Shown here one piece after another: positions 18,434-27,896 of a stretch of DNA of 64,000 nucleotides. Below the pieces are notes generated by a model that searched no databases, was not told the DNA's origin, and saw nothing but the letters and a program-made list of their open reading frames with translations. A program made the position numbers and the translations under genes. Numbering within the stretch: position 1 is the first letter of the stretch; each line of letters opens with the position of its first letter. The stretch comes from Candidatus Poribacteria bacterium (GTDB lineage: Bacteria; Poribacteria; WGA-4E; PCPOR2b), in NCBI GenBank assembly GCA_965208325.1, contig OZ242326.1, positions 3,584,001 through 3,648,000 of the forward strand, given 5' to 3'.

Positions 18434-19648
18434 TTACGCCCATTGACGAAACTTGGACTTTTTTAGTATCGACAAAAAGAACCCAGCCTCAACGGAATCA
18501 GGCAAAGGTTTCAATCGCCCTTTGTCAATTTTGTGAAGCACCTTCTTAACGTCGAGTGGTGCACCTTCCGTTAGAGGATCGGTGGAACCTGAAACTATAG
18601 CGTACAATAGCCAGTCCCGTTTCTGTGGGTCTAACGTCTCGTCCGTGCCTTCCACAAATCCTTCACTTGATGTTATCGTCGTGACAAGTTCGGCAGGACT
18701 GGCATTTTCACCTGTCGTGTGTGCTTCAATTAGACTCTTTATCCATGACCGTTCAACCTTGTTAAACGTTCTGTTACACCATTGTACGACCGTATCGGTT
18801 GCTAATTGACCGTCAATCCTTTTATTGATCTTCTTAACGTTCTCATTGAATTCGCGTTTGATTGTAGTGCGCCTCTTATTTGTCGCATCACGTATAACTT
18901 TGGATTCATGAGCAACAATGCCTTCAATCCGCGTTTTAAGTTCTCTGTCTATTTTGTTTAACACCCTCTGGAATGTTGTTCTAGTCGCGCGCATTTTAGC
19001 GTCAATATCTGAGATCGTTTCAATACCTTCTTTTTGAATATCGACAACCGTTCCGCGACCTGCTTTTTTCTCATTATCAATTACGCCTTGAATACGAAGC
19101 CTTGCAGCTCTCCGCGCTTCTTCGCGCTCAACTATCGTATTGGTTTCACGGTTAAGTTTTTTTATGGATTCGTCTTGCGCTATTTTCAGTCTATTGATAA
19201 CAGCATCCGTTTCCGCCTCGATTTCGCCAACTTTTGTTCTTGTCTCCTGCTCTGATAATCCCCGTTTTCTCTGCAACTCTGACAATTCAGCATCCCGTGC
19301 TGTTTCTGTATCAATTCTTAGGTTTTCGGCATCGGCTTTCGCTTGCGCAACTTCAGGACTGGTGTGTTTTATTGCTTTGAGATCTGCCAATAACTCATTT
19401 TCAAGTGCGCGTAAATCTTCATCATGTTTCAATTTAGCCTTGTAAAGTTCGGCATCGCGTTTCTTCTCGTAAGGTGCGCTAACCTCCTCTTTTGCTTCGC
19501 GGACAATCCGAACAATTTCGTCGCTGTTATTCCTTAGGAAGTTTCCTAAATCAGCTTCCGACATCACTCTGTCGTTCATAAGTTCACCAACAAATTCGTA
19601 AAGAACTCTAAACGTTTGGCCGATACCTTCGCGTCCATGTTTCGGCAC
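18434..19648 (-). CDS. Hypothetical long coiled-coil protein with small C-terminal domain
   Basis: 404-aa ORF with a highly charged helical centre; no family recognised. Confidence 0.7.
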   Translation of the reverse strand: MPKHGREGIGQTFRVLYEFVGELMNDRVMSEADLGNFLRNNSDEIVRIVREAKEEVSAPYEKKRDAELYKAKLKHDEDLRALENELLADLKAIKHTSPEVAQAKADAENLRIDTETARDAELSELQRKRGLSEQETRTKVGEIEAETDAVINRLKIAQDESIKKLNRETNTIVEREEARRAARLRIQGVIDNEKKAGRGTVVDIQKEGIETISDIDAKMRATRTTFQRVLNKIDRELKTRIEGIVAHESKVIRDATNKRRTTIKREFNENVKKINKRIDGQLATDTVVQWCNRTFNKVERSWIKSLIEAHTTGENASPAELVTTITSSEGFVEGTDETLDPQKRDWLLYAIVSGSTDPLTEGAPLDVKKVLHKIDKGRLKPLPDSVEAGFFLSILKKSKFRQWA

Positions 19649-20002: not shown

Positions 20003-21814
20003 TTAAATGTCCCACAACAGCACTGTGCCATCGGTGCTTCCGCTGGCAAGCGTTTTTCCGTCTGGGCTAAATGCTACGCCATTCACTTGGGCCGTATGCC
20101 CGGAGAGCGTCCGGCGAGGTTTTCCCGTGCTGACATCCCATAAACGGACGGTGTTGTCCACACCCCCGCTTGCGATGTTGTGTCCATCGGGACTAAAGGC
20201 TACGCTCTCGACACATCCCTTATTCCCAGAGAGGGTGCGGAGGTGTTCGCCCGTACCAACTTTCCATAAACGGACGGTGAGGTCCCCACTCCCGCTTACG
20301 ATAGTTTGTCCATCGGGACTAAAGGCTACGCTCTCGACACGTTCCTGATGCCCAGAGAGTGTGCGGATTTGCTCGCCCGTGCTAACTTCCCATAGAAGGA
20401 TGGCGCCATCCGAGCTCCCGGTGGCGAGTGACTGTCCATCGGGGCTAAAGGCTACACTAGTGACGTGATTCTTAATCCATGTAAGTGTGTAAAGTTGTCT
20501 ACCTGTATTAACATCCCATATGATGGTTCTGGTTAAATCCCCGGTGGCGAGCATGTGCCCGTTGGGGCCAAACGCTATGTTATAGGCACTAATACAATCT
20601 CCGAGGGTGTGGAGGCGGTTGCCTGTGCTAACGTCCCATAAGATGATGTCTCCCACGCTCCCAGAAGCGAGTATCTGCCCATCTGGACTAAAAGCTACGC
20701 TCTCGACACTAGTCCGATGCCATGAAAGTGTGCGGCTGTGTCTACCCATACCAAACTCCCATAGATGAACTCTTGCGCCGAAATCACCCGTGCCCCCGCT
20801 AGCGAGCGTGTGTCCATCTGGACTAAAGGCGACACTCAGGACACTTTCCTGATGCCCAGAGAGTGTGTGGACGTGTTCGCCCGTGGCAACATTCCAAAAA
20901 CGGACGGTGTTGTCTGAGCTCCCGGTAGCGATAGTGGTTCCATCGGGACTAAAGGTTACGCTATTGACATCATGCGTATGCCCCGAGAGAGTGAAAAGAT
21001 GTTTCCCAGTGCCAACCTCCCATAAATAGATGATACCACGAGGGTAAGTTTGGCCTCCACTTGCCAGCGTGTTTCCATTTGGACTAAAGGCTAGGCTCAC
21101 ACTGTCTCCTGGAGGCCCAGAGAGGGTGTAGAGGTGTACACCGTCAACGCTCCATAAACATATGGAATTGTCCCTGCTTCTGCTAGCGAGCGTGTGTCCA
21201 TCCGGACTGAAAACTATACGTTTCAAATCGGAGGTATGCCCTCCGAGCGTGTGTATGAGTTTGCCCGTGCCAACATTCCATAAACGAACGGCATGGTCCC
21301 TCCATCCACCTGCGCTGGCGAGTGTTTCTCCACTGGGACTAAATGATATACTGACGACACCACCCGTATGCCCCGAGAGGGTACGGACGTGTCCGCCTGA
21401 GCCAACATCCCATATACGGATGGTACCGTCATGGCTTCCGCTAGCGATGATATTTCCGTCCAGACTAAAGGCTACGGTATTGACAATATCCGTATGTCCT
21501 GTGAGTGCACGGAAATGCCTACCCGTGTTGACATCCCAAAGACGGATACTTTCGTCCCAATTCCCGGTAGCGATTGTATTTCCATCCGGACTAAACGATA
21601 CGCTCAGGACATCACTCGTCGAATGCCTTGCGAGGAGAGCGAGCTCTTGACGGGTTTCAACATGATAAAGCCAAACGCCGATAGAGGTCGCGACCGCCAG
21701 ACGTGTATCGTCAGGAGAATACTGTATTTCCCTTATTATGCCTTTGCCCAAGCGGAGTTTTGCACTTTCGGGTAAACTGAATTGCGTATAGTCTAGTTCA
21801 AGCGGGTTATCCAC
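20003..21814 (-). CDS. WD40-repeat protein (about 13 repeats)
   Basis: Repeated GH...V.SVAFSPDG.TLASGS.D.TVRLWDV units; N-terminal YTQFSLPESAKLRLGKG. Confidence 0.95.
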   Translation of the reverse strand: MDNPLELDYTQFSLPESAKLRLGKGIIREIQYSPDDTRLAVATSIGVWLYHVETRQELALLARHSTSDVLSVSFSPDGNTIATGNWDESIRLWDVNTGRHFRALTGHTDIVNTVAFSLDGNIIASGSHDGTIRIWDVGSGGHVRTLSGHTGGVVSISFSPSGETLASAGGWRDHAVRLWNVGTGKLIHTLGGHTSDLKRIVFSPDGHTLASRSRDNSICLWSVDGVHLYTLSGPPGDSVSLAFSPNGNTLASGGQTYPRGIIYLWEVGTGKHLFTLSGHTHDVNSVTFSPDGTTIATGSSDNTVRFWNVATGEHVHTLSGHQESVLSVAFSPDGHTLASGGTGDFGARVHLWEFGMGRHSRTLSWHRTSVESVAFSPDGQILASGSVGDIILWDVSTGNRLHTLGDCISAYNIAFGPNGHMLATGDLTRTIIWDVNTGRQLYTLTWIKNHVTSVAFSPDGQSLATGSSDGAILLWEVSTGEQIRTLSGHQERVESVAFSPDGQTIVSGSGDLTVRLWKVGTGEHLRTLSGNKGCVESVAFSPDGHNIASGGVDNTVRLWDVSTGKPRRTLSGHTAQVNGVAFSPDGKTLASGSTDGTVLLWDI

Positions 21815-21905
21815 GAGGTGAACTCTATTCTATCGCCTAATAAGTGGGCGGGTTAAAGATTTTGAGAAATTTTTACGCGGGACAGATTTGCAATGCGTCC
21901 AATAA

Positions 21906-22544
21906 TCATCGCGGTAGTGAGCCATATTTGGCAAACTCATTTGCCACCACCTCTGCAAGCTGCCGCACAATCTGTTCTGCATCATCAATGTCAGCTCTGG
22001 AATAAGAGGTTTCAACAAGGTTACTTGAATCAAGTTCTTGAATGCCGACCGCAAATTTATTTTCTGAACGGTGATAAAAGCGAGCCAATCCTCTTTGTAT
22101 CAGTGGCATACGCAACTCCTCTTCCCAACGAAGTGAAATTTCATCAAGGAGAATCGCACGGTATCCTTGGGGGGTCATATCAACTCGTAAGATAAATCCC
22201 CCCAAACTTAAATCATGACCTAAGTTGAATCGAAGACGAACGCGGGAGTCGATAGTCGTAATCTTTTCATTTTGGAACCAATTTATGTAAGCATCAAAAC
22301 GCGCTAGGGAGTTTTGAATCCTAGGTTTATTATTTAGTCTATAACTTTGAAACAACTTCTTGGTATACTCCCTAGCTTCTTGTAAATTCCCATCTCGGTG
22401 AAAGCGACAAATTCCTTCGCGGAGACAATGGTTGTAACTTGTTCCACGAAAAGTTGTATTAACTTGTTTTGAAACCCATTGGGACGGATTTCGCTGGCAT
22501 TGGGCAAGTTGACTGTGGCTGATTTTACTATGAGCGATTCTCAT
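21906..22544 (-). CDS. Hypothetical protein, possible degenerate PD-(D/E)XK (RecB/Cas4-like) fold
   Basis: ISHSQLAQCQRNPSQW resembles the N-terminal S.S.L...CP motif; LGGFILRVD resembles G.IDR.D. ATGA overlap with the queC-like gene. Confidence 0.6.
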   Translation of the reverse strand: MRIAHSKISHSQLAQCQRNPSQWVSKQVNTTFRGTSYNHCLREGICRFHRDGNLQEAREYTKKLFQSYRLNNKPRIQNSLARFDAYINWFQNEKITTIDSRVRLRFNLGHDLSLGGFILRVDMTPQGYRAILLDEISLRWEEELRMPLIQRGLARFYHRSENKFAVGIQELDSSNLVETSYSRADIDDAEQIVRQLAEVVANEFAKYGSLPR

Positions 22545-23842
22545 GACAGAAACGGGGTTAGGGCGGCATACCGACTGAGTACGGTCCGTGCTTCCCGTGA
22601 AAATCGTCTATACATTTCAATAACTTTATCAGCGTTAAGATTAAGCGAGTATAGTTCAGGCCACTCACTCATAATGTCTTCAGCTGACGATTCCTCGATT
22701 TTTACGACGAATTCCGTCAAATCGACGATGTTCCGCCGACCTATGTCCTCAGGGTCTATTTGACTGATTTTCTCTTCCCAACAATTTCTACCATATGCTG
22801 TCGAATCTTCAAAAATTAGGAATTCAACAGCGATACGCCGAATAAAGCATGGAATACATGCGCCGCAATGTGTGATACCAGCAGGAAGACGAGAATTACG
22901 CCAACAACTGTTTGTTATCGGAATTATGTCGGGAAAGAGGTTTATGACCTTCTTGACAACTTCTGCTTTCGTCAAATGAACATACGGATTTAAAATTTGG
23001 AACGGCGCATCGAGTGCTTCCGCCAAAAAGACCTCCATACCGACTAAAATGTCTGGATGGGCTGTATGTGTGGAGAATGCTCCAATTCGACCTTGCGTCA
23101 ACGGTAGATGAATAGCCATCTGTCCATTCTCCGCGAGATAGACTATTTCGACTTGCCCCGTTCGGCGCGCTACAAGCGCACCGAGCACAAGAAAGAGAAA
23201 CGAGCGTGTTCGTTGACTACTTTCTACGTCATGGTCCAATTGGCTTGGTCCGCCGTCCCGCGAAGAAACGAAAAATCGGTAGTGCGGGAGATTCAATCCA
23301 CGATTTTTTAGTTCTGCAGCTAAATTTATCTGTGCCTGCGCTGTTGCCCGATTTCGTGTTATGTGGCTTACGAGTTGTAGCGTTTTCTCCTTTTGGCCAA
23401 ACTCGATGGCGGCAGCAAGCGAGTCCAATCCTCCGGAAAAGAGAAGTGTTCGCCCGCCTCCTTGAGTAACCTGTATATTCTTTTCGGGATCGCCAGATAC
23501 TTGTCTCAAATTAACCCTCCAGGCGTCATTTGAGAGATTTCGGAGAATCTCTTCGATTCTCGAAGTGATTGGCTGTAAGCGAATAGAATTGACAACCGGT
23601 ATCTGTAGTTCAATTCGTCTGGAAATGTCCTCTCGGACACCACGGGCCGTGGCTCGGTCTGCCGCAAAGATGGACGCACCAATCAGCAACAAATCCGATT
23701 CCAAACTCGTCAACGATCCAAATACTTTCTCAAAACGATCTTCTCCTGTAGACAGGTTCTTTCCCACTTCAAGTATGTGATCGCATTTTCCATCCTCATT
23801 GCCTCCTCGACGGACAAAATATGAAATCATTGCGTACTCCAC
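22541..23842 (-). CDS. qatC: QatC-like (QueC/7-cyano-7-deazaguanine synthase family) PP-loop ATPase
   Basis: LLFSGGLDS PP-loop; QRTRSFLF; ENG...PL...R.GA.ST.T.HP; NPY...TKAEVV; SCW...HCGACIPCFIRR Zn site; N-terminal IFAADR...RRIELQIPV extension typical of QatC rather than housekeeping QueC. Confidence 0.85.
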   Translation of the reverse strand: MEYAMISYFVRRGGNEDGKCDHILEVGKNLSTGEDRFEKVFGSLTSLESDLLLIGASIFAADRATARGVREDISRRIELQIPVVNSIRLQPITSRIEEILRNLSNDAWRVNLRQVSGDPEKNIQVTQGGGRTLLFSGGLDSLAAAIEFGQKEKTLQLVSHITRNRATAQAQINLAAELKNRGLNLPHYRFFVSSRDGGPSQLDHDVESSQRTRSFLFLVLGALVARRTGQVEIVYLAENGQMAIHLPLTQGRIGAFSTHTAHPDILVGMEVFLAEALDAPFQILNPYVHLTKAEVVKKVINLFPDIIPITNSCWRNSRLPAGITHCGACIPCFIRRIAVEFLIFEDSTAYGRNCWEEKISQIDPEDIGRRNIVDLTEFVVKIEESSAEDIMSEWPELYSLNLNADKVIEMYRRFSREARTVLSRYAALTPFLS

Positions 23843-24399
23843 TCTCCGCTAAGGGATGCAATCACGGCAGAAATATAATTCCGCCATCCTCGTGGATTGG
23901 CGGTTATGGGGGCTACGGCTCTTGCGGCATCGCGTGCGATGTTACGCAGATTTTCTTTGAGAGCGATCGAATCGGTTGTTGTTTGAATACGCCCCGAAGC
24001 CCCGACGAAGGAAGGTAAATCGCGGGAAGCATAGTATGATATAGCTTCAGCAAAAAGTTCTGCAGCAAACCCAACGGAACCGCTTTCGGTTGCTGATGCA
24101 CGTGCCAACGCTCGTTTGGCCATATCAAAAGTGAGACCTACTGCGTACTGTTCATTCAATGAATGGTTAAATGATTGAACAGCGTTTGCGGGCGGTAACC
24201 TCTGCTCGGCAATTTCACACGCCGACGCTATTAATGGATTCGCCAACTCTTCAATCAATCGTCCATCTCGATCCATAACGGCCGATCGCCAGAGTTCCTC
24301 GCTCTGTCGCTCGACAGGCCAGTTCAAGTCGCCTAATACAGCTAGCACTGGTCGCCAGTTGGGTGTATTCGGGGATGATTGATTGCTCGATGTTCCCAC
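23827..24399 (-). CDS. QatB-like helical protein (N-terminus MGTSS)
   Basis: GTG start, MGTSSNQSSPNTPNW, all-helical body, overlaps the qatC-like gene by 16 bp. The assignment rests on the N-terminal motif and gene position. Confidence 0.65.
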   Translation of the reverse strand: MGTSSNQSSPNTPNWRPVLAVLGDLNWPVERQSEELWRSAVMDRDGRLIEELANPLIASACEIAEQRLPPANAVQSFNHSLNEQYAVGLTFDMAKRALARASATESGSVGFAAELFAEAISYYASRDLPSFVGASGRIQTTTDSIALKENLRNIARDAARAVAPITANPRGWRNYISAVIASLSGEWSTQ

Positions 24400-24401
24400 G
24401 A

Positions 24402-25331
24402 CTAAACTCCGTTTTTTATACGTTCATCATCAACAGCCTGCAATTCTTTCTCAATGACGCTGAAATGAATACGTCCGCCCTTAAAAACTTGATTCCACCG
24501 GATACCATTACGAACGTCTGGTTTCCGTCTGAAAAGATTGACAGTTGCCGCAAGAACATTGGCATCAATAAAAGATAAGGGCACTTTGGCTTCAGCGCTA
24601 AATTCCAGACACAGTTCTAATAATCGAGCATCGTCCTGTTTAAATTCGGAAGAAGAGACAAGTGCCCCGTACAATTCCACATGACCACGCTGCCTGACGC
24701 GTTGCTGTTCAACATATTCAGCGAGCGGGCGTAACTTCGACCATACGACGTTAAAGCCGTCAGCAGATGCTTTTGTATCAACGACGAGGATCTGGCTTGT
24801 AGGTATTTGAGCCAGCATATCGCTGACACGACGACCACTTAAACGACCACCCAATCTTCTAACACGGCGTCCGAAAATAAATTCTAATCCGGAACAGACC
24901 AAATCCTCAAAAATTAACCACGCTTCGCCTTGTGTTTCACCAGCGGGCAACTGGTTCTTTGCGGCGGTTATCAAAGCTTGCTCGTACTCCGGGCTGAGCG
25001 CATGCCACGATGGAACCGCCCCACCAAGTGCTTCAGTAAAGTCTTCCCACGAAATTGTCTTTTCACTTGGTATGGGAGATACAATAACTGGGGTACGATT
25101 TTGATTTTGAGCGGAATGGTAAATGTCATCGATCTCCGGCTCAGACAGTTCATCAAGATCGGTGACAGCAATCAGGTATGGGATGCTCGCCCCAAGAATA
25201 TCTGTTCGTTTACATCGAATTTCGATATGACGAGGTTGCCTATGGCTACCCTCTATAGAATAGCCGGCAACGATTAGTGTCCGAGTAGCGGTTTGCGTTT
25301 GGGGGAAAGTTAAGTGACCGTCGTCCACCAT
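24402..25331 (-). CDS. Two-domain protein with C-terminal FokI/Mrr-like restriction-endonuclease domain
   Basis: FEDLV...LGG...SD...LVVDTKAS..GFN...EYVEQ...VSSSEFK. Likely start MVDDGH with AGGA RBS (ORF track starts at 25391). Confidence 0.7.
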   Translation of the reverse strand: MVDDGHLTFPQTQTATRTLIVAGYSIEGSHRQPRHIEIRCKRTDILGASIPYLIAVTDLDELSEPEIDDIYHSAQNQNRTPVIVSPIPSEKTISWEDFTEALGGAVPSWHALSPEYEQALITAAKNQLPAGETQGEAWLIFEDLVCSGLEFIFGRRVRRLGGRLSGRRVSDMLAQIPTSQILVVDTKASADGFNVVWSKLRPLAEYVEQQRVRQRGHVELYGALVSSSEFKQDDARLLELCLEFSAEAKVPLSFIDANVLAATVNLFRRKPDVRNGIRWNQVFKGGRIHFSVIEKELQAVDDERIKNGV

Positions 25332-25570
25332 TTTATTCCTGCTTGATCGAATTATCCCTTTATTGCTAAGATTCGATTCCATTTGCAACACTCAATTTGA
25401 GACGTATTCATTACAGAGCCATTCAGAAAATCTGCTAGTTAGAGAAAGATTAGTGTTGGCAGCTTTCAGTTGGGTTTTTATCGCCATTGCTATTCGCTCG
25501 CTTAATTCGTTGGTAAGGGGGAGGATATACCGAACAGATTCAGAATTTGGAGCAGAGTTCATTTATTCTT

Positions 25571-27703: not shown

Positions 27704-27806
27704 CTTTTTCCTTAAGATTATGAGGAATTACGCAAATTGAACAGAGTTCGCTCAGTCGATACTATACGGTCGCTTGATTCCACCAAATCCCTTACTCCAG
27801 CATTGC

Positions 27807-27896
27807 GCGGGGCAAGATGCCCCGCCTACAGGGCGTGCTGGCGCGTGCGGGGCAAGATGCCCCGCCTACAAGGCGTGGTGGCACACGCGGGGCAAG
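27807..27896 (-). repeat. Tandem GTAG-REP cluster, 40-bp period
   Basis: GCGGGGCAAGATGCCCCGCCTACA at 27807 and 27847, with a partial third copy at 27887. Confidence 0.8.

Follow-up and report, generated by a model that had tools for sequence, protein, structure and literature searches.

A four-gene cassette in Candidatus Poribacteria: an apparent relative of the Qat defence system, not previously described

Within a 64,000-nucleotide stretch of a Candidatus Poribacteria genome (assembly GCA_965208325.1, contig OZ242326.1, positions 3,584,001 to 3,648,000; hereafter the window, in whose coordinates positions are given), four tightly packed, co-oriented minus-strand open reading frames (ORFs) at 21906-25331 form a cassette that resembles the Qat defence system and appears to be a relative of it not yet described. 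The four genes, named g1 to g4 in the order in which they are read, encode a FokI-type nuclease fold, a small QatB-like protein, a QatC-family enzyme and a degenerate RecB/Cas4-fold protein. The reading that we favour, with moderate confidence, is that of a horizontally mobile four-gene anti-phage defence unit built on a QatB-QatC core and working by the mechanism proposed below. QatABCD itself was reportedly presented as an anti-phage system by Gao and colleagues in 2020. A first-pass annotation of this DNA, made from the letters without database searches, had suggested that a QatBC core is here coupled to a different pair of partners; the gene content bears this out, and the anti-phage function is our inference.

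A recurrent four-gene cassette

The cassette and the segment that carries it are laid out as follows.

24402-25331, minus strand: g1, predicted two-domain nuclease of 309 amino acids (aa); the longest ORF extends to 25391.
23827-24399, minus strand: g2, QatB-like small protein of 190 aa with a GTG start.
22541-23830, minus strand: g3, ATP-dependent QueC-like enzyme of the QatC family; the longest ORF reaches 23842.
21906-22544, minus strand: g4, RecB/Cas4-fold protein of 212 aa without the canonical (D/E)xK.
21830-25540, no strand assigned: inserted segment holding the entire cassette, an insertion/deletion (indel) relative to same-genus genomes.

Homologues inform the choice of start codons. 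The ATG at 25331 taken for g1 has a matching start in about 120 homologues, each of about 309 aa. Orthologues of g3 begin with MISYFVRR, which corresponds to the ATG at 23830 in the window, and this is therefore the most likely g3 start; with it, g2 and g3 share a second ATGA (4-bp) overlap. The ORF calls agree with the first-pass annotation that g1 and g2 are 2 bp apart and that g3 and g4 overlap by an ATGA. Its 16-bp overlap between g2 and g3 holds for the longest g3 ORF but shrinks to 4 bp with the ATG at 23830 and, to judge from the orthologous starts, is probably an artefact of choosing the longest ORF.

The same arrangement recurs far outside the Poribacteria. A pattern search anchored on g1 and restricted to one genome per species, followed by tblastn and ORF calling, gave 26 loci (numbered with an L below). 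In 19 of these the genes stand in the order g1-g2-g3-g4 on one strand, and neighbouring genes typically overlap by 1-4 bp or lie a few bases apart; three of the 19 are imperfect, one having split genes (L024), another a stop codon early in g2 (L014), and the third being truncated inside g1 by the end of its contig (L004). The other seven comprise three loci cut by contig ends (L007, L009, L023) and four remnants, namely L013, in which g4 is missing and the end of g3 is disrupted, and L021, L025 and L026, which hold pieces of g1 only. Anchoring on g2 gave 18 loci, where g1 and g3 were present in every case and g4 in 16; 17 of these lie on contigs already found via g1, and the new one, with a complete cassette, belongs to the isolate Granulicella sp. 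S156. Judged by record titles, the hosts are Poribacteria, Cyclobacteriaceae, many Acidobacteriota, Gemmatimonadota, Anaerolineales and Nitrospira, so that the cassette spans at least six phyla (Poribacteria, Acidobacteriota, Gemmatimonadota, Bacteroidota, Chloroflexota and Nitrospirota), and one g2 homologue is labelled Bathyarchaeota.

Because the same four genes recur across phyla in the same order and with the same 1-4-bp junctions, their tight packing goes beyond chance. That they are mere neighbours with no joint function deserves almost no credence, since the arrangement is recovered in at least six phyla through either anchor gene and no intact g1 occurs apart from g2 and g3 in the loci examined, the g1-only cases being contig-end cuts or fragments. 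The operon, like the fold assignments described below, is solid; the four genes do co-occur in other genomes, and the order first described in the window is conserved among homologues.

Several irregular copies were encountered along the way. Codon 4 of the g2 orthologue in L014 (1119-1682) is an in-frame stop (MGT*) that falls inside the essential N-terminal motif and may denote a pseudogene, a sequencing error or recoding. One Poribacteria metagenome-assembled genome (MAG) holds several cassette copies or fragments on different contigs (L002, L004, L021), and four g1 matches fall in genome G146; paralogy or strain mixture is possible.

The QatB-QatC core

The g3 protein belongs to the QatC family. 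It matches the PADLOC QatC model at 2.9e-55, Pfam QueC at 1.2e-7, and the solved QatC chains 9zee_B and 9vlk_A at 3.7e-28 and 3.6e-26, respectively. Across 19 orthologues from several phyla, the motifs SGGLDS, S-T-x-T-A-H-P, E-N-G, R-x-R-x-F and P(x)4TK are invariant, as is a zinc motif, C…H-C-G-x-C-x-P-C-x-x-R-R. The same motifs (SGGxDS, TxT/HP, P(x)4TK, the zinc motif and terminal extensions) are given as signatures of the QatC sequence cluster in PMC13329287, and g3 keeps both of the QatC threonines that PMC13279940 describes as invariant and essential. The protein is 429-433 aa long and has the QatC extensions. The QatC-type QueC motifs noticed at first sight in the third gene are thus confirmed as family-wide features. 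The g3 proteins nevertheless stand apart from those of QatABCD: identity to 135 plasmid-borne QatC-like genes is 26-33% by tblastn, and a quick maximum-likelihood tree groups the 19 orthologues in a single clade (Shimodaira-Hasegawa-like approximate likelihood ratio test, SH-aLRT, 99) on a long branch of 2.71 to eight canonical QatC sequences. Branching in this tree does not track taxonomy.

The protein encoded immediately upstream resembles QatB in its N-terminal tail. In 50 sequences of the g2 family, T3, S4, S9, P10 and W15 never vary and M1, G2 and P13 hardly do, giving the consensus MGTS-x4-SP-x2-P-x-W. Canonical QatB proteins at seven of eight plasmid loci start with MGT(S/T), mostly followed by …SP-L-x-P-x-W. 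The MGTS motif, Gly2 and the Pro/Trp stretch of QatB are essential for Qat defence (PMC13279940, PMC13639016), and a 7-amido-7-deazaguanine adduct has been detected on the QatB N-terminal peptide (PMC13639016). An ESM Atlas cluster for g2 carries PF28083 QatB on 15% of its members (at 0.87, rank 15), which we treat as a lead only. A profile of the g2 family searched against all Protein Data Bank (PDB) chains returned only chance-level matches (best E 0.28) and no QatB chain.

Structure prediction brings the two proteins together. The predicted g2-g3 complex reached an interaction prediction score from aligned errors (ipSAE) of 0.92 in all three runs, the best of three controls reaching 0.00; in calibration, 116 of 157 solved complexes reached the ipSAE mark, as did 2 of 215 mismatched pairs. 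The runs share at least 95% of their contacts, with a partner predicted local distance difference test (pLDDT) score of 91. The interface involves g2 residues 1-10, the g3 loop 247-258 and the g3 C-terminal extension, and the published QatBC interface uses the matching QatC loop and C-terminal extension (PMC13279940). As QatBC structures have already been solved, the docking score may partly reflect likeness to them and is to that extent not independent evidence. Together with the N-terminal motif, in which Gly2 is nearly invariant over 50 sequences, the predicted docking makes g2 a well-supported, not a proven, equivalent of QatB, and its N-terminal glycine is presumably the substrate of g3. 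The helical body of g2 may be a homologue of QatB or merely an analogue.

These features also bear on whether the modified substrate might be a nucleic acid. Under modification-dependent restriction of a Dpd-like kind, g3 would make a 7-deazaguanine derivative for DNA or RNA and the nucleases would discriminate between modified and unmodified molecules. QueC-family enzymes do feed DNA 7-deazaguanine modification (PMC13329287), and two of the four cassette proteins have nuclease folds. However, no transglycosylase-like family is found among the four proteins in Pfam, PADLOC or NCBIfam, g3 has the remodelled QatC site (TxT) and not the canonical QueC substrate motifs, and the invariant glycine motif of g2 with its predicted insertion into g3 points to a protein substrate. 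We therefore regard this alternative as distinctly improbable.

Nuclease-fold partners and comparison with known systems

The AlphaFold2 model of g1 (pLDDT 90.9) comprises two domains. The N-terminal domain (about residues 11-104) adopts a small Hjc/VRR-NUC-like fold without a catalytic motif, and the C-terminal domain (about 111-290) has a FokI-type cleavage-domain fold with a PD-(D/E)XK core. Its catalytic set, E142, D171, D185 and K187 (D185-K187 forming a DTK motif), is invariant in 64 sequences, and the C-terminal domain should therefore be an active nuclease. The FokI-like nuclease originally proposed for the first gene is thus borne out by fold and by the invariant E/D/DxK set. Searches of PADLOC, NCBIfam and Pfam assigned g1 to no family at E<=0.01, and the local Pfam search gave no match at E<=0.001 to PF09254, which we take to be the FokI cleavage-domain family; precomputed annotation assigns PF09254 to the window g1 and to many homologues. 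A tblastn search of the plasmid collection with g1 gave no match.

The fold of g4 is of the RecB/Cas4 nuclease type, as in the nuclease domains of AdnA and AddB and in the Argonaute-associated ACE1. Ten residues are invariant in 19 cross-phylum orthologues (W23, Y37, Y86, W89, R120, D122, R145, P147, Q150 and Q169). The strand expected to hold (D/E)xK reads LLG-x-x in most members, position 134 being mostly G and position 136 never K; D122 and Q150 are kept, and the Tyr position of the Q…Y helix is Ala or Ser. No cysteine is invariant in the 19 sequences, so the family lacks the four-cysteine iron-sulphur (Fe-S) cluster of the Cas4 and AddB type. Since the lysine and the Q…Y tyrosine are gone and no invariant cysteine remains, the earlier description of the fourth gene as a degenerate PD-(D/E)XK protein is apt. 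In Pfam, PADLOC and NCBIfam g4 has no family at E<=0.01, PDDEXK_1 included, and only fold matches were obtained; in the ESM Atlas it falls with unnamed clusters of about 200 aa and with a PDDEXK_1 cluster at 0.92. A g4 profile searched against 1.84 billion cluster representatives recovered 530 members at E<=0.001, of which 451 pass 1e-10; almost without exception these are stand-alone proteins some 200 aa long. By its fold and motifs, g4 is possibly a sensor, reader or adaptor and not a nuclease.

The cassette shares with QatABCD a QatC-family enzyme with all signature motifs, a small MGTS…P.W protein encoded immediately upstream of it, the B-then-C order with translational coupling, and the same QatC loop and C-terminal extension in the predicted interface. 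In contrast to QatABCD, Pfam, PADLOC and NCBIfam find neither a KAP/P-loop NTPase (QatA) nor a TatD protein (QatD) in the cassette, where the FokI-fold g1 and g4 take their respective places, and g2 measures 190 aa as against 252-295 aa for QatB at eight canonical loci. The first-pass annotation had remarked on the lack of QatA and QatD, which holds for the window cassette but not for the family as a whole: QatD follows g4 in one of the 18 related loci whose flanks were scanned. There, in a Gemmatimonadales MAG (OY970303.1; L015:10449-11297), QatD (PADLOC 1.4e-69) overlaps the end of g4, which makes a cassette of five genes, g1-g2-g3-g4-QatD. A DnaN-like sliding-clamp gene and a gene for a 591-aa protein without a family match are located upstream; the 591-aa protein was tested as a candidate QatA and gave no match. 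This locus indicates that a QatBC-type core can combine with either accessory set.

Neither catalogues nor the literature covered here describe this architecture. PADLOC-DB v2, NCBIfam and Pfam contain no catalogued system matching the cassette, and PADLOC returned a lone QatC (g3), in line with the partial Qat hit that had been anticipated. No description was found in full-text literature, a scope that leaves out most subscription papers, and the available parts of PMC13279940, PMC13639016, PMC13329287, PMC13376578, PMC13434339 and the Cap9/Cap10 preprint mention no FokI-like or Cas4-like partner. The initial impression of an architecture unlike any described system accordingly stands within this scope. 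According to PMC13434339, 98.1% of 631 qat clusters are canonical ABCD, with no such variant among them in the part available, and QatD is called conserved in essentially all known operons. KAP and TatD neighbours accompany only about 34% of the QatC sequence cluster in PMC13329287, which leaves room for architectures such as this one; searches of its supplement found no FokI, PF09254, PDDEXK or other nuclease entry beside that cluster.

Other systems are more distant. Type IV CBASS (cyclic oligonucleotide-based antiphage signalling system; 10.1101/2025.04.06.647259) likewise has a QueC-family enzyme presumed to modify the N-terminal glycine of an adjacent partner. The cassette differs from it in having no CD-NTase, no Cap10 transglycosylase-like reader and no CBASS family in PADLOC; in its g3, which at 429-433 aa belongs to the QatC branch and has a remodelled substrate site, compared with a Cap9 of about 185 aa; and in its effector, a directly encoded nuclease instead of a protein activated by a nucleotide signal. 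Unlike FokI and other type IIS enzymes, g1 has neither a FokI-type DNA-recognition domain nor a methyltransferase partner, and its N-terminal domain, small and nuclease-like in fold, has no catalytic residues. Finally, g4 differs from Cas4/RecB nucleases in lacking the (D/E)xK lysine, the Tyr of the Q…Y motif and an invariant Fe-S cysteine set.

Mobility, proposed function and significance

Three same-genus genomes (G033, G034 and G035; 94-96% complete) all lack the cassette. Homology to them stops at window positions 21794-21829 and restarts at 25541-25552, with a gap of 211 bp in G035, and because it breaks off and resumes around the cassette in this way, the segment is a 3.7-kb indel. Across the phylum, g1 is found in four of 176 genomes (G000 included) and in none of the 28 others of the same family. 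The accessory status of the island, suspected from the start, has thus proved to be that of a clean indel. The GC content of the insert, 0.460 compared with 0.491 for the window, falls in the lowest 10% of 3.7-kb windows and is no more than a weak signal; at the insert ends no target-site duplication and no direct or terminal inverted repeat stands out.

The neighbourhoods of related cassettes were scanned at 18 loci, with 132 flanking ORFs compared with Pfam and 112 of these with PADLOC. At seven of the 18, transposase, integrase, resolvase or conjugation genes lie within 4.5 kb (L001, L003, L005, L008, L010, L013 and L018). Defence-related neighbours include a type I methyltransferase with a restriction fragment (L012), an Mrr-like nuclease with two PADLOC candidate families (L011), PDC-M05A (L018) and a Cas-associated PD-DExK family (L001). 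The complete cassette of Granulicella sp. S156 (L061; NZ_LMUH01000018.1) lies between a DnaE2-type polymerase gene and, downstream, a gene for a 504-aa Mrr-like protein. On a 7.3-kb IMG/VR contig (L072), g1 is followed by the first 107 residues of g2 (MGTSRNDPSP…), within which the contig ends, and the two genes follow directly on a DnaB-like helicase gene and a gpA-type terminase split in two ORFs.

Such surroundings raise the alternative of a selfish module that serves mobile elements by addiction or stabilisation, much as toxin-antitoxin pairs do; g1 would be a toxin restrained by the QatBC-like pair, the chief effect would be to retain the element, and phage defence would be incidental. 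Transposases, integrases and conjugation genes often adjoin the cassette, its distribution across phyla is patchy with a QatC tree that does not follow taxonomy, the catalytic set of g1 is intact, and degraded copies exist (L013, L021, L024, L025 and L026). We nonetheless think this unlikely: the homologous QatBC core is experimentally anti-phage (PMC13279940), four conserved genes with an ATP-dependent modifying enzyme are elaborate for such a role, and in the window no element genes adjoin the cassette, which stands by itself in the chromosome.

For the anti-phage unit that we prefer, we propose the following sequence of events. The enzyme g3 would spend ATP to activate a 7-deazaguanine-type carboxylate from the host Que pathway and would join the activated group to the exposed N-terminal glycine of g2, whose tail would reach into the active site of g3. 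Whether g2 is modified would then control g1. The FokI cleavage domain cuts only as a dimer, and g1 would likewise have to pair up to cut, destroying either phage DNA or, in an abortive response, host DNA. With its catalytic lysine lost, g4 might serve as sensor or adaptor for DNA ends or for the modified g2 tail. The analysis establishes which genes are present, their folds, motifs and conserved order, and that the cassette is accessory and mobile, whereas we infer the chemistry, the assignment of sensing and the anti-phage role. QatBC alone protects against some phages (PMC13279940). The first-pass annotation, having seen no queD, queE or folE in the window, had placed the supply of the deazaguanine precursor elsewhere. 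Consistent with this, the genome outside the window carries a canonical QueC (258 bits), three PTPS/QueD-like genes, two of them adjacent, and a weak QueE match to an E. coli-type model that stays below its cut-off in most control genomes too.

A more specific version, which we hold only as a long shot, is that the tag on g2 acts as a tethered signal read by g4, which would thereby assemble g1 or license its dimerisation. The g4 pocket retains invariant Arg, Asp, Gln and aromatic residues where the catalytic lysine is gone. If g4 does read the tag, the cassette would be a minimal, fully nuclease-wired Qat that reveals what QatBC modification is for, and g4 would be a second type of reader for protein deazaguanylation beside Cap10.

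A number of observations weigh against the defence reading and against its QatBC basis. No family at E<=0.01, and no QatB model, matches g2 in Pfam, PADLOC or NCBIfam; none of the 50 g2 family members matches QatB or another relevant family in NCBIfam; and hhalign aligns only 19 N-terminal columns of the g2 family with eight canonical QatB sequences, at a probability of 16%. The earlier label of QatB-like for g2 accordingly holds for the N-terminal motif and the predicted docking and fails in not being matched by a QatB hidden Markov model. Against the NCBIfam QatC equivalog NF041925, g3 scores 207.7 bits, under the cut-off of 280, and is therefore a divergent QatC branch. Even canonical QatC awaits in vitro reconstitution of its reaction, and the residues with which it recognises the base are unlike those of Cap9 and QueC (PMC13279940, PMC13639016). 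The roles assigned to g1 and g4 derive from folds and motifs only. Most flanking ORFs at the other loci have no PADLOC match at 1e-8, and in the window itself the cassette lies next to a WD40 protein gene and a D-serine-dehydratase-like gene, with no defence genes among its neighbours.

Other features of the window were also noted. One short ORF adjoins the cassette.

25392-25562, minus strand: 56-aa ORF 5' of g1, probably no gene and outside the system.

This ORF was considered as a regulator and rejected, being conserved in no related locus: tblastn found no counterpart in any of them. It overlaps a stretch that can be aligned with a repeat-bearing intergenic region of the same-genus genome G035, and for these two reasons we discount it as a gene. 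Scans for promoter and terminator consensus sequences gave no matches above shuffled expectation. The WD40 gene (20003-21814) encodes a 603-aa protein that consists of little other than WD40 repeats (Pfam recognises 12 stretches); it contains a 126-bp tandem repeat at 20136-20455 and has dozens of 63-70% DNA matches across same-genus genomes, and so is one of a large paralogous family. Two genes from the cassette, 18434-19648 encodes a charged 404-aa protein, probably a coiled coil, with no Pfam family and a weak PADLOC match to ZorA (E 0.008). At 27806-27896 an intergenic 40-bp unit is repeated 2.3 times, and the many 78-94% matches to about 27748-27874 in a same-genus genome suggest a dispersed element of the repetitive extragenic palindromic (REP)-like type.

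Three 2026 structural papers present QatBC as the functional core of Qat and, in the parts available, leave open both the effect of QatB modification and the route by which phage are stopped. The present cassette couples a QatBC-type core to an unmistakable DNA-cutting effector and a degenerate nuclease-fold protein. Given that effector and a QatB shorter by about one-third, it offers a simpler system whose output, DNA cleavage, would be easy to assay, and a cultured carrier exists in Granulicella sp. S156. At such loci PADLOC-DB v2 and NCBIfam would report at most a lone QatC, and the cassette may explain part of the QatC cluster that has no QatA or QatD neighbours (PMC13329287).

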